Shown piece by piece: positions 31,313 to 36,205 of a DNA stretch of 64,000 nucleotides; the stretch's first letter is position 1; every line of letters begins with the position of its first letter. The position numbers and the translations under genes were made by a program. Source of the DNA: Clostridia bacterium (lineage in GTDB: Bacteria > Bacillota > DTU025); NCBI GenBank assembly GCA_034926675.1, contig JAYFQW010000024.1, positions 5,841 to 69,840 on the forward strand, written 5' to 3'. The notes below the pieces were generated by a model. That model did not search any database. It was not told the origin of the DNA and saw nothing but the letters and a program-made list of their open reading frames with translations.

Positions 31313-33253
31313 TTGAAAACGCTGATGACTGGAAATGAGGCTATGGCGCGGGGCGCATGGGAGGCTGGCGTGAGGTTCGCCTCGGCCTACCCGGGAACAC
31401 CTAGCACCGAGATTGTGGAGAGTGTGGCGCGGTACAGGGAGATCCGATCTCAGTGGGCAGTGAACGAGAAGACCGCCCTCGAAGCTGCACTGGGGGCATG
31501 TATTGCTGGTGTGCGGTCCATGTGCGCGATGAAGCATGTGGGGCTCAATGTGGCCGCTGATCCCCTGTTCTCCTCGGCCCATGTGGGAGTGAATGCTGGA
31601 TTCGTGATAGTCACTGCCGACGACCCTGGCTGTCATAGCTCCCAGAACGAGCAGGACAACAGGCACTACGCCAAGTTCGCCAAGCTCCCTATCGTGGAGC
31701 CTTCCGATTCCCAGGAGGCTCTCAACTACATGAAGGCTGCCTTTGATATCAGCGAGGCCTTCGACACGCCAGTCCTGTTCCGATCCACCACAAATCTTTC
31801 CCACGGGAAGACTCCCGTGATTGTCGGCGAGCGAGTCGAGGCGCCTCCCCGTGCGTACGAGAGGACGCAATCCAAATACGTCCTCATGCCGGCTGCTGCC
31901 CGAGCTCGCCATGCAGTGCTCGAGGAACGCCTCCTGAAGCTTGCGACATACGCCGAGATCTCGCCATTGAACAGGATTGAGTGGGGTTCCCGCTCGATCG
32001 GGATCATAACGAGTGGTGTGGCGTACCAGTTCGCCCTCGAGTCGTTGGGGCAGAAGGCCTCCTACCTCAAACTTGGAATGAGTTTCCCGTTCCCTAAGAA
32101 TCTTGTGAGGCGGTTCTCAACCGAAGTGGAACGGCTTGTTGTGATTGAGGAGCTCGATCCGTTCATCGAGGAGGCCGTCCGCGCACTCGGCATTTCCGTT
32201 GAGGGCAAGTCGCTGATCCCACTCACCGGCGAGTTGGACACTGGAATCGTGGCTCGGGCGTTCGGATTGTCCCTGGCGAGCCTCGGCGCAGGAGTCGGCG
32301 CCAAGGCACAGGCAGAGACGGCGCAGGCCGAGGCGCAGGCGCAGGCGGAGGCGCAGGCCGAGACGCAGGCGCAGGCGGAGGCGCAGGCCGAGACGCAGGC
32401 CGAGACGCAGGCGCAGGCGCAGGGGGGAACCCGCGACAAGGCTGACGCGGCGGAGGCGCCCTTGCCCGCCCCGCCGGAGCAGGTCCCTGGCAGGCCTCCG
32501 ATGTTCTGCGCAGGCTGCCCCCACAGGGGAGTATTCTACGAACTCGCCAAACTGCCTGTGGCGGTATCCGGCGACATAGGCTGCTACACTCTTGGCTCTC
32601 TCCAGCCCTTCGGCGCCATGGATACCTGCATCTGCATGGGCGCCGGCATCTCCACAGGGATGGGGTTCCAGGCGGCCCTGGAAATGCTTAGGGTTGAGAA
32701 GCCCAAACGAACCGTGGGCGTGATCGGCGATTCCACCTTCTTCCACTCTGGTATGACCGGGCTGCTCGACGCGGCCTATAATGGATCAGGGCTCATAACG
32801 TTCATTCTTGATAACCGCATCACTGCCATGACTGGCCATCAGGAGAACCCGGGCAGCGGGTTCAATCTCTCAGGCGATGCTGCCAATGAGGTGAGTATCG
32901 AAGGCATCGTGAAAGCCTTCGGGATCAAGAACGTCGCGACCGTCGATCCGTTCAACCTAGAGAAGGTGCGCGAAGCCTTGGTCGCAGCTCTTGCCGACCC
33001 AGGTCCATCTGTGATCGTGGGCCGCGCCCCCTGCGCCCTCCTCAAGCGATCAGCTGTGAGAAAACCCGCCTACTATGTGGATCAGGAGACCTGCCGCAAG
33101 TGCAAGCTGTGCCTGCGTGTAGCGTGCCCGGCTCTCTATGTGGAGAACGACATGGTGCAGATCGATGCAGACGCATGCGTCGGATGCGGCGTATGCAGCC
33201 AGGCGTGCCGCTGGGGAACGATCAAGATCCTTTCGAAGGCTGGTGACAAGTAA
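31313..33253 (+). CDS. iorA: Indolepyruvate:ferredoxin oxidoreductase subunit alpha, carrying an internal low-complexity (AQAE/AQAET)n insertion
   Basis: 646 aa with TPP-binding and PFOR domains and a C-terminal 2x4Fe-4S region (CRKCKLC...CVGCGVC). The TTG start at 31313 is preceded by GGAGGG. Residues about 325-385 are an AQAE-repeat linker. Confidence 0.85.
   Translation: MKTLMTGNEAMARGAWEAGVRFASAYPGTPSTEIVESVARYREIRSQWAVNEKTALEAALGACIAGVRSMCAMKHVGLNVAADPLFSSAHVGVNAGFVIVTADDPGCHSSQNEQDNRHYAKFAKLPIVEPSDSQEALNYMKAAFDISEAFDTPVLFRSTTNLSHGKTPVIVGERVEAPPRAYERTQSKYVLMPAAARARHAVLEERLLKLATYAEISPLNRIEWGSRSIGIITSGVAYQFALESLGQKASYLKLGMSFPFPKNLVRRFSTEVERLVVIEELDPFIEEAVRALGISVEGKSLIPLTGELDTGIVARAFGLSLASLGAGVGAKAQAETAQAEAQAQAEAQAETQAQAEAQAETQAETQAQAQGGTRDKADAAEAPLPAPPEQVPGRPPMFCAGCPHRGVFYELAKLPVAVSGDIGCYTLGSLQPFGAMDTCICMGAGISTGMGFQAALEMLRVEKPKRTVGVIGDSTFFHSGMTGLLDAAYNGSGLITFILDNRITAMTGHQENPGSGFNLSGDAANEVSIEGIVKAFGIKNVATVDPFNLEKVREALVAALADPGPSVIVGRAPCALLKRSAVRKPAYYVDQETCRKCKLCLRVACPALYVENDMVQIDADACVGCGVCSQACRWGTIKILSKAGDK
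32305..32425 (+). repeat. In-frame tandem repeat (about 30-nt unit GAGGCGCAGGCCGAGACGCAGGCGCAGGCG, about 4 copies) inside iorA
   Basis: Direct repeats are visible in the sequence. They encode (AQAEAQAQAE / AQAETQAQAE)n between the catalytic and ferredoxin domains. Confidence 0.8.
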
Positions 33254-33831: not shown

Positions 33832-34148
33832 AAGCCAACGCTCCGTTGATGGCATCGGCCCTGCTGGCCGCGGTTGGGGTGCTCTCAGTCCTCTTCGGAC
33901 ACTTGATCGGGGATAAGCACAGGTTTGAACTCATCAACGGGCACAAGGACGAAAAGGCGAAGGACGCCGACCGGTTTGCTCGGTGGATGCAGGGCTGCTT
34001 CTACACCATGGGCGGCATTCTCACCGCTGGAGCAGCTCTGATCTGGATCACGAAGGCGTTTGCCGCGATACTCTTTTGCACGGTGCTGGCCACCACGGTG
34101 GTCCTCGGCGTGATGACCGCCGGCGCGGGCAGATACTATAGGATCTAG
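33828..34148 (+). CDS. Hypothetical small membrane protein (about 106 aa, 3 TM helices)
   Basis: The GTG at 33828 overlaps the iorB TGA (GTGA). An alternative start is the ATG giving MASALLAAVGVLSVLFG. The protein has two or three hydrophobic helices and a central KDEKAKDADRFARW loop. Confidence 0.45.
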   Translation: MKANAPLMASALLAAVGVLSVLFGHLIGDKHRFELINGHKDEKAKDADRFARWMQGCFYTMGGILTAGAALIWITKAFAAILFCTVLATTVVLGVMTAGAGRYYRI

Positions 34149-34323
34149 CGCACGCACAGGGGATCCATCTGCCACTGGGTCCGGCCCGATCGCGCCAGCT
34201 TGTCTTCCTCAGCGACTTGCGCGAAGCGACACGGCGCAAGTTCCCCGCAGGCGCCCAGCGCTGTATTACCGAGATCTTCGGTACGCGCCCTCGGCCAGCG
34301 CACCTGATTTTTCAGAGACCCAG

Positions 34324-34571
34324 TACGGAATCCGTACAGGCATCGCTGGGTACCTGTACGGATTTCGTACTACGCTGAGAGCAGAATCAGCGGACGGCTT
34401 TTGAATACGCACCGATTCATGCAAAAACAGTGTGATGGTCCATACGCAGGAGCCTATAATGGAAGTAATTAGGATATTTGGGGCTCGTCTACCCATCCCT
34501 GTGGGCAAGCAAGGCCTAGCGTTGTACGGATTCCGTACCACTCATGCGGTGAACCAGTACGAATTCCGTAC
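34324..34571. repeat. Array of four 15-bp palindromes (GTACG-N5-CGTAC) in two pairs flanking an AT-rich core
   Basis: Copies at 34324-34338 GTACGGAATCCGTAC, 34356-34370 GTACGGATTTCGTAC, 34524-34538 GTACGGATTCCGTAC and 34557-34571 GTACGAATTCCGTAC. Within each pair the centre-to-centre distance is 32-33 bp. The pairs are 200 bp apart. Confidence 0.8.
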
Positions 34572-34598
34572 TGCCCATGAGGTGCGCAGGGGAAAACC

Positions 34599-35990
34599 TC
34601 ACGTTTCCATCGAGTGCAGCTTCAGTATGCTCTTCTTGATCGAAGCTTCCTCCCCGTTCTCGCCAGGCTCATAGTACACCCGGTCAGTCAATCCATTCGG
34701 CATGTACTGCTGCTGGACGTATGCCCCTGGGTAGTCGTGGGGGTACTTGTAGCCAACTCCGCTTCCCAGGGCCCCTGCACCGCGGTAGGAGGAATCCCGC
34801 AAGTGCGATGGGACATCCACCGAGGGTTTCTCGCGCACATCAGCCTGAGCTGCATCTATCGCCCGCACCACGGCATTGCTCTTCGGAGCGGTGGCTATGT
34901 ATATCGTGGCATGGGCAAGGATGATTCGCGCCTCCGGCAATCCCACCTTCTCGACGGCAAGCAGAGCGGCCGCAGCGACTGTCAGCGCACGGGAATCCGC
35001 CATTCCCACGTCTTCGCTGGCATGTATCATGAGCCTGCGCGCGATGAACCTGGGATCCTCGCCAGATTCGATCATCCTTGCCAGGTAGTGGAGGGCAGCA
35101 TCGGGATCAGAACCCCGCATGCTCTTTATGTAGGCTGAGACCACGTCGTAGTGCATATCGCCGCCTGCATCGTACCGCAGAGCGCGCCGCTGTATGGAAT
35201 CCTCAGCTACCTCCAGCGTTATGTGAACAACACCATCTGAATCAGAAGGGGTGGACAGGGCCGCCACCTCAAGAGCGTTCAGTGCAGTGCGAGCGTCCCC
35301 GTTTGAGAAGCTAGCCAGGTGGTCTAGGGCTTCGGGATCGATTGTTATGTTGATATGGCCAAGACCGCGCTCGCAATCGCTGATAGCGCGTAAAACCACC
35401 GTTCGAACCTTGGCGGCATCGAGCGGCTCCAGCCGGAAAAGCCGTGACCGCGATACCAGCGGAGGGTTCACGTCGAAGAAAGGGTTCTCTGTGGTAGCGC
35501 CTATCATGGTGACAGTCCCGTCCTCCACAGATGGAAGGAGGGCGTCCTGCTGAGCCCTGTTGAACCTGTGGATCTCGTCGATGAACAGAATCGTCCTCTT
35601 GCCCCGGAGTTTCATGCGGTCTCGCGCCTCAGCCACTACCCGCCTGATGTCGGCCACGCCAGCTGTCACAGCATTGAGCCTCTCGAACTCGGCCTTAGTG
35701 GTGACAGCGATAACCTCCGCTATCGTCGTCTTTCCAGAGCCAGGTGGACCGTAAAGGATGATCGACCCGATGCGGTCCGACTCGATCGCGCGCCGCAGCA
35801 ACTTCCCCGGTCCAAGGATGTGCTCCTGCCCAACGATCTCATCGATACTCCTCGGCCTCATGCGGGCAGCCAGGGGAACCCTGTCTCGCGAACCGCCCTG
35901 CTCCAACCCAAAATCGAACAGATCCGCTCCAGGCATGACCCTCACCTCTACGAGATGTCCGCGAAAATGAGCACGAAAATACCCCGCCAT
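34599..35990 (-). CDS. rarA: Replication-associated recombination protein A (RarA/MgsA AAA+ ATPase)
   Basis: 463 aa with Walker A GPPGSGKTT, an AAA+ core, the MgsA C-terminal domain and a C-terminus YKYPHDYPGAYVQQQYMP. Confidence 0.9.
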   Translation of the reverse strand: MAGYFRAHFRGHLVEVRVMPGADLFDFGLEQGGSRDRVPLAARMRPRSIDEIVGQEHILGPGKLLRRAIESDRIGSIILYGPPGSGKTTIAEVIAVTTKAEFERLNAVTAGVADIRRVVAEARDRMKLRGKRTILFIDEIHRFNRAQQDALLPSVEDGTVTMIGATTENPFFDVNPPLVSRSRLFRLEPLDAAKVRTVVLRAISDCERGLGHINITIDPEALDHLASFSNGDARTALNALEVAALSTPSDSDGVVHITLEVAEDSIQRRALRYDAGGDMHYDVVSAYIKSMRGSDPDAALHYLARMIESGEDPRFIARRLMIHASEDVGMADSRALTVAAAALLAVEKVGLPEARIILAHATIYIATAPKSNAVVRAIDAAQADVREKPSVDVPSHLRDSSYRGAGALGSGVGYKYPHDYPGAYVQQQYMPNGLTDRVYYEPGENGEEASIKKSILKLHSMET

Positions 35991-36205
35991 GGCGTAGGTC
36001 TGGCCGCTTCTCCCCCGCGCTGCGAGGTGGGCGCCCTCCTGCTACGTTAACGTTCCGCACCTGCGGCGCGGCACACATGCTCGTAGTAGAGACCGGGCTC
36101 CCTGAGAAGAGATGTTGGAAGTAAACAGCCAGTGCACCCACGTGCACAGCAGGGTTATTGCGTCTTCATTCAGCGGGTATATCATATCACACAGAAGTCA
36201 GCCTT

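Follow-up and report, generated by a model that had tools for sequence, protein, structure and literature searches.

Four 15-bp palindromes, set in two pairs around a stretch of lower GC content, lie in the intergenic gap between the convergent genes of a DUF3784-like membrane protein (+ strand; Pfam E 7e-6) and rarA (- strand), at positions 34149-34598 of the window, i.e., of the whole 64-kb stretch of clostridial DNA that was analysed. Comparison of sequences suggests that the consensus of the four, GTACGRAWTYCGTAC, serves lambda-O-like replication initiators as their iteron in phages and integrative elements, a point that was absent from the earlier note on this DNA. The reading to which we give about an even chance is that the module is an orphan or relic iteron-type origin that a mobile element left behind or that descends from one; most likely it is a piece of an origin that was left over or hitch-hiked, rather than a new gene switch.

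The palindromes and the segment that carries them

The window is core chromosome, with transcription nearly all on the - strand, and its GC content was measured as 59.8%, not the approximately 66% that had been given before. The four palindromes of the type GTACG-N5-CGTAC that the earlier note described are all exact, although the first had been placed 1 nt too far to the right, its true start being 34323. The pattern GTACGNNNNNCGTAC has exactly four exact matches in the 64-kb window, where dinucleotide-preserving shuffles give a chance expectation of 0.02 per window, and no additional site with up to three mismatches to GTACGGATTCCGTAC was found in the 64 kb. The four sites (P1 to P4), the core between them and the inferred boundaries of the inserted segment are the following:

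34154 to 34163, + strand: left flanking direct repeat, GCACAGGGGA, 5 nt past the DUF3784 stop codon
34164 to 34583, no strand assigned: inferred inserted unit of about 420 bp, made of a GC-rich, palindrome-free left part of 157 nt and the 253-bp module, where relatives have an 11-bp gap
34323 to 34337, no strand assigned: P1, GTACGGAATCCGTAC, exact pattern match and perfect 7+1+7 dyad
34356 to 34370, no strand assigned: P2, GTACGGATTTCGTAC, exact pattern match, 33 bp from P1
34377 to 34517, no strand assigned: core between the two pairs, including the lowest-GC 100-mer; candidate unwinding region
34524 to 34538, no strand assigned: P3, GTACGGATTCCGTAC, exact pattern match and perfect dyad
34557 to 34571, no strand assigned: P4, GTACGAATTCCGTAC, exact pattern match, 33 bp from P3
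34584 to 34593, + strand: right flanking direct repeat, GCGCAGGGGA, 5 nt before the rarA stop codon and resembling the 11-nt gap of the relatives

All four sites fit the consensus, which consists of two 7-bp half-sites GTACGRA about a central A or T, and the spacers inside the two pairs are otherwise unrelated, which upholds the proposal that the palindromes are putative protein-binding sites. The sequences that flank the four sites (acccA, tacct, gcgtt and aacca) are not conserved. The start-to-start distances are 33, 168, and 33 bp, and the pairs lie 201 bp apart; the regular spacing described earlier is confirmed, with small corrections to its values of 32-33 bp within pairs and 200 bp between them. 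All of these inter-site distances are multiples of three, and each reading frame meets the four palindromes in one phase. This shared phase may be a coincidence, of about 1 in 27, and no coding remnant is shown.

P1 and P2 form a 19-nt inverted doublet with arms that are 95% complementary and a loop of 12 nt, which folds with -35 kcal/mol on either strand, whereas the inverted arms of P3 and P4 are weaker (87%). P3 and P4, each taken as a unit of 28 nt, repeat in direct orientation with 82% identity. Together the palindromes make up a module of 253 bp (34321-34573), the termini of which (34321-34376 and 34518-34573) are imperfect inverted repeats of 56-59 nt with 76% identity. An artefact of GTAC avoidance or of restriction sites was rejected, as GTAC is no more than mildly under-represented in the window (147 observed versus 229 expected). 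No description of this 15-mer was found in the literature, where the only matches were papers on the Widom-601 nucleosome.

The earlier note had called the gap unusually long for convergent genes. The gap and the convergence are confirmed, although the window has other long ORF-free gaps. In four contigs with 76% RarA identity (L122-L125), the order hisS-rarA followed by the convergent DUF3784-iorB-iorA is kept, and the stop codons of rarA and DUF3784 are only 11 bp apart, TGCGGGCGGGG. Given that these syntenic relatives have an 11-bp gap, the segment of approximately 420-430 bp is, on this sequence comparison, a lineage-specific insertion, as anticipated by the suggestion that it might be an indel; the suggestion that it comes from a mobile element is also counted as supported. 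The insertion has not replaced the gene ends, a possibility that was rejected because the DUF3784 and rarA genes both retain homologous C-termini. A tRNA integration site was likewise rejected, since the 64-kb window contains no tRNA genes. The 10-nt direct repeat that flanks the segment matches at nine of ten positions (empirical P = 0.015 for at least 9/10 between two 30-nt boundary zones), suggesting that a target or an att core was duplicated on either side of a unit of about 420 bp.

Three sequencing runs yielded short-read contigs with the element, at 99.7-100% identity. Each of the three public contigs over the locus breaks in or beside the module (L001 ends at 34516, L194 starts at 34317, and L195 starts at 34241), and the breaks may come from heterogeneity among strains, from a repeat at another genomic site or from hairpins that disturb the assembly.

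Other features of the neighbourhood were recorded alongside. A full-length 6S/SsrS RNA lies at 35977-36158 (- strand) between hisS and rarA (Rfam RF00013, 62.5 bits). With the start at 35990, as in the longest rarA ORF, the gene would run 14 nt into this RNA and, because the 6S RNA occupies 35977-36158, the start of rarA is placed at 35936, which corresponds to the recorded product of 445 aa. The DNA comes from an uncultured member of the Bacillota, and the closest relatives of its RarA are metagenomic proteins with 74-80% identity, and the best named one is from Caldinitratiruptor (65%). In IorA, a linker of about 40 residues made of low-complexity AQAE/TQAE repeats (window 32297-32425, + strand) precedes the ferredoxin-like CxxC region; in the syntenic relative L122 this linker is shorter and non-repetitive, and the protein has 590 aa versus 646 aa here.

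The core, its reading frame and the hairpins

The layout of the palindromes could also be that of an operator array for a dimeric regulator encoded in trans; bound to both pairs, the regulator would bend the DNA into a loop round a core promoter that controls a small gene or sRNA. The spacing of 33 bp, which is approximately three helical turns, and the 201 bp between the pairs are compatible with this, as is a similar pair found in Mycobacterium (L049) at the start of an HTH gene, i.e., in an operator-like position. A Shine-Dalgarno-like AGGAG, located 6 nt upstream of an ATG at 34459, also points in this direction. Nonetheless, the core does not provide the promoter that this arrangement calls for. 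The hexamers TTGAAT (34401-34406) and TATAAT (34455-34460), which had been quoted as promoter-like, are 48 nt apart and for this reason do not form a sigma-70 promoter, and a sigma-70-like scan of the gap found no -35/-10 pair with a legal spacing of 16-18 bp. The statement that the core is the only clearly AT-rich stretch of the window holds only in part, given that 34380-34479 is indeed the lowest-GC 100-mer (43% GC), but 14 other stretches have 44-47%.

The putative small gene fares no better. The ORF of 71 aa (34459-34674) does start 6 nt after AGGAG and does run antisense into the last 25 codons of rarA, as had been described, although its ATG is at 34459 and not at 34460. Among 1.84 billion representative proteins this ORF has no relative but itself, it has no match in Pfam or PHROG, and its GC3 of 0.54-0.60 is non-coding-like when compared with the 0.68-0.73 of the neighbouring genes. 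A small protein was rejected on these grounds, and a 91-aa antisense ORF is not on record. An sRNA finds no more support, since a search of the gap against Rfam gave no family even at E = 10; a known RNA was rejected because the sole Rfam match, the 6S RNA across rarA, leaves none within the element. Given also that the whole segment is absent in the syntenic relatives and that no regulator gene is adjacent, an operator array is considered quite unlikely.

The hairpins open another possibility, namely that the main role of the doublets is at the RNA level, as barriers at the 3' ends of the two convergent transcripts, those of DUF3784 and rarA, which they would either stabilise or terminate with the help of a factor. 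The predicted stabilities are considerable, with -35 kcal/mol (z -7.2) for P1/P2 on the + strand and -25 kcal/mol (z -3.5) for P4/P3 on the sense strand of rarA, where the hairpin starts 27 nt past the stop codon. The P1/P2 hairpin, however, lies 170 nt beyond the stop codon of DUF3784, and the scan of the gap for intrinsic terminators found none, the hairpins being present but with no T run following them (no U tract in the transcript). Moreover, the relatives cope with a gap of 11 bp, and a barrier role leaves unexplained the exact identity of the 15-mers with those of initiator-associated arrays. Such a main role of the module is very unlikely. If the module is a relic origin, each pair could still form a strong hairpin in read-through transcripts of both convergent genes, and a barrier role may be a side effect of these hairpins.

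The same 15-mer in phages and other genomes

A generic scan for paired GTACG-N5-CGTAC, with one genome per species, gave among the matches listed mostly unrelated repeats, i.e., REPINs of Methylococcaceae, tandem repeats of Streptomyces and a Bacteroidales element. The same listed matches also contained arrays of the exact 15-mer of the window, in MAGs of the Actinomycetota (L005), the Clostridia (L036) and the Proteobacteria (L037). When pairs of the specific consensus were sought, complete scans returned 1 viral and 16 metagenome contigs, with GC contents from 27 to 67%. Outside the window, the arrays of this consensus in phage, metagenome and MAG contigs have 2-4 or more copies. The 15-mer of P1 is also present in the initiator-associated arrays L130, L132, and L143; P3 is identical to the iterons of L005, L036, L129, L137, L140, and L142 (L036 and L005 being among the genome-scan matches listed), and P4 to those of L134.

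The arrays with identical 15-mers (L005, L129, L130, L132, L134, L137, L140, L142, and L143) are overlapped or adjoined by ORFs that match Phage_rep_O or PHROG replication-initiation families. Two arrangements are seen. In L129, L132, L145, L134, L136, and L142 the array lies within an initiator ORF of 262-354 aa, directly after the N-terminal winged-helix domain, and these ORFs match Pfam Phage_rep_O or the PHROG families 'replication initiation O-like', 'replication initiation protein' and 'DnaD-like helicase loader'. In L130, L140, L143, and L037, which form one family, and also in L005 and L137, an initiator-like gene of 126-230 aa has the array across or directly behind its 3' end. Some of these loci have genes of mobile elements as neighbours, namely an integrase and an excisionase-like gene in L037, an excisionase-like and a ParB-like gene in L005, and an HNH nuclease gene in L137. 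In L133 the array is directly upstream of dnaB, and AT-rich runs adjoin the arrays of L129, L132, L135, and L142. With the generic motif GTACG-N5-CGTAC in viral contigs, eight of the ten ORFs that overlap arrays are replication initiators, a proportion to be read in the light of the fact that origins are favoured whenever phage DNA is searched for paired palindromes and that the comparison arrays are themselves inferred origins.

Among the initiators with this iteron, at least five groups can be told apart that are unrelated by BLAST, yet align on one winged-helix core, NNG..GW.S[KR]xTL..A...L...G. The occurrence of one iteron, GTACGRAWTYCGTAC, across at least five unrelated groups implies, as far as sequence can tell, either a conserved mode of recognition or the exchange of the binding domain and the origin as a module.

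At the start of its contig (positions 1-540), the Clostridia MAG BRZ_DA__bin30 (L036) has at least six tandem units of 37-39 bp, each with a 19-bp palindrome, GAGGTACGGATTCCGTACCTC, which are followed by an AT-rich stretch with three direct repeats of about 57 bp. This array abuts the chromosomal genes for a metallophosphoesterase, a glycosidase-like protein and rsmD-coaD. It is possibly another array that lacks an initiator, the contig ending inside the array.

REP/REPIN- or MITE-like elements usually accumulate between convergent genes, and it may be asked whether the module is a low-copy extragenic palindrome of this type, mobilised by a transposase encoded elsewhere and settled between the two genes. 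In Methylobacter and other Methylococcaceae (L004, L006, L009, L011, L012, L019-L034, and others), an abundant REPIN family with many copies per genome is made of GTAGGGTACGCTGTGCGTACC, a spacer of 15-25 nt and then GGTACGCACAGCGTACCCTAC, which shows that the same palindrome arms are classical REP cores in another phylum. Like these doublets, the palindromes of the window have the GTACG...CGTAC core, fold into hairpins and lie as an inverted doublet between convergent genes. The near-perfect left pair, with its long hairpin of -35 kcal/mol, the imperfect inverted termini of 56-59 nt and the breaks of the three public contigs in or beside the element would also be accommodated.

REPINs, however, are present in many copies per genome and have a conserved GTAG flank, while the window has this motif at one locus in 64 kb, with no second copy even at three mismatches, and the four sites have neither a GTAG-type nor any other conserved flank. 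The complete metagenome scan of the exact motif found no multi-copy genome, and most of the interpretable matches are in replication modules, to which the motif of the window is otherwise tied, none being REP-like. An exhaustive protein search with the ORF that spans the core, P3, and P4 also gave no second copy. As for a MITE, the module is not flush with the left direct repeat. The sole candidate for a target duplication (34154-34163 and 34584-34593) is separated from the left inverted terminus by 157 nt, which argues against a TIR-defined MITE; with no second copy in the 64 kb, the MITE-like insertion that had been put forward finds no support as a classical MITE. On balance, an element of the REP/REPIN or MITE type is unlikely.

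A further inverted pair, which is conserved, recurs in Bacteroidales, in contigs of Muribaculaceae, Prevotella and Bacteroides (L018, L038, L041, L043, L051, L054, L055, L072, L075, L088, L094, L102, L105, L111, and L119), in which caattgtGTACGCnnnGCGTACa is followed by about 23 nt that include a GAGGA-like stretch and then by tGTACGCnnnGCGTACacaatg.

A proposed iteron-type origin without its initiator gene

An iteron-type origin would be recognised by at least three to four regularly spaced repeated sites, by a site sequence common to initiator-associated arrays, by an adjacent AT-rich region and by a cognate initiator beside the array. The window offers four sites of one 15-mer consensus at intervals of 33, 168, and 33 bp, and their sequence is the one found in the initiator-associated arrays. 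The core between the pairs is only modestly AT-rich (43% versus 60% GC), 1-2 points below other stretches of the window. A cognate initiator is absent, as tblastn with 12 initiators found no homologue in the 64 kb, and a PHROGs search of the insertion revealed no trace, in any frame, of a decayed one. The layout is also atypical, the sites being arranged as 2+2 and split by 153 bp, whereas the arrays elsewhere are contiguous and have 3-4 sites.

When the insertion is compared with the initiators at the protein level, the tblastn matches are confined to the palindromes. In the + strand frame 34142-34375, P1 and P2 are read in the phase that is typical of real initiators (STESV/CTDFV); this frame stops right after P2 and mirrors the family of small initiators, in which two iterons are in the 3' end of the gene and two are downstream. 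Its assignment as a truncated initiator is nonetheless unproven, since 72 of 200 shuffles did at least as well against the family profile, which gives no signal beyond the residues encoded by the iterons. At the DNA level, a similarity search against 50,697 phage and 72,556 plasmid records, including sso and oriT regions, found no match, and the 20-mers of the core are absent from the viral contigs. Outside the palindromes, the segment has no similarity to any phage, plasmid or compared locus.

We infer from these comparisons that P1-P4 would bind a winged-helix initiator. In the relic-origin model, they would be iterons, i.e., binding sites for dimers of a winged-helix initiator of the lambda-O/replisome-organiser type, and together with the lower-GC core they would constitute an origin-like cis module. 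This module would have come from a phage or an integrative element and would now sit, with no initiator gene, in the insertion of about 420 bp between rarA and the DUF3784 gene, either as what remained when an integrated element was later deleted or as a fragment that was captured illegitimately. On its own the module would presumably be inert, and would become active only if an infecting phage, or a prophage at another place in the genome, provided a cognate initiator in trans.

The closest parallel is ori-lambda, where four dyad-symmetric iterons of 19 bp and an AT-rich region lie inside gene O and are bound by dimers of the N-terminal domain of O. The window shares with it the four dyad-symmetric repeats beside a lower-GC stretch, and the comparison loci share the position of the array, inside Phage_rep_O or O-like genes just past the winged-helix domain. 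Unlike ori-lambda, the locus of the window has a different iteron sequence, sites that are not contiguous but divided 2+2 by the core, and no initiator gene, and it is a core chromosomal intergenic gap and not a prophage. Two clusters of repeats that bracket a central region are also known from the parC centromere of plasmid R1, where two clusters of five iterons flank the parMR promoter. The repeats are protein-binding in parC and putatively so in the window, which, however, has no partition genes and no promoter in its core, and the type of repeat and the associated protein family are different.

The lactococcal phages Tuc2009 and TP901-1 have their origins inside the genes of their replisome organisers (PMC8965321). 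The arrays of the comparison loci are placed in or beside initiator genes, and those of Tuc2009 and TP901-1 are bound by the organiser protein of the phage itself. In phage-encoded resistance (PER), an origin supplied in trans interferes with the replication of the phage, which was shown with cloned plasmid origins (PMC8965321). PER illustrates that an origin with no phage can still matter, but unlike the PER plasmids the module is here seen as one chromosomal copy. By analogy, the host or a resident element might keep the initiator-less origin as a decoy in cis, the iterons of which would titrate or handcuff the O-like initiator of an infecting phage that recognises GTACGRAWTYCGTAC, or else the site might fire in trans and amplify the rarA-hisS region. 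We give these proposals very little credence. The decoy would be the natural counterpart of the laboratory PER effect, and such a natural role, though possible, is unsupported.

That iteron origins lie within initiator genes or next to them is textbook knowledge. An intact copy of such an origin that has no initiator and sits in a gap between housekeeping genes is unusual, and it can be explained as a relic. If this is true, a gap in the core chromosome has retained, long after the loss of a mobile element, a few hundred bases of its origin, intact and with all four sites perfect. For annotation, the practical consequence is that where no promoter is expected in a gap, palindromes paired about an AT-richer core are more likely to be a relic of the replication of a mobile element than a new regulon. 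The 15-bp iteron, common to at least five groups of initiators that are unrelated in sequence and to hosts with 27-67% GC, would be a simple signature in the DNA by which to locate the origins of uncultured phages and integrative elements.
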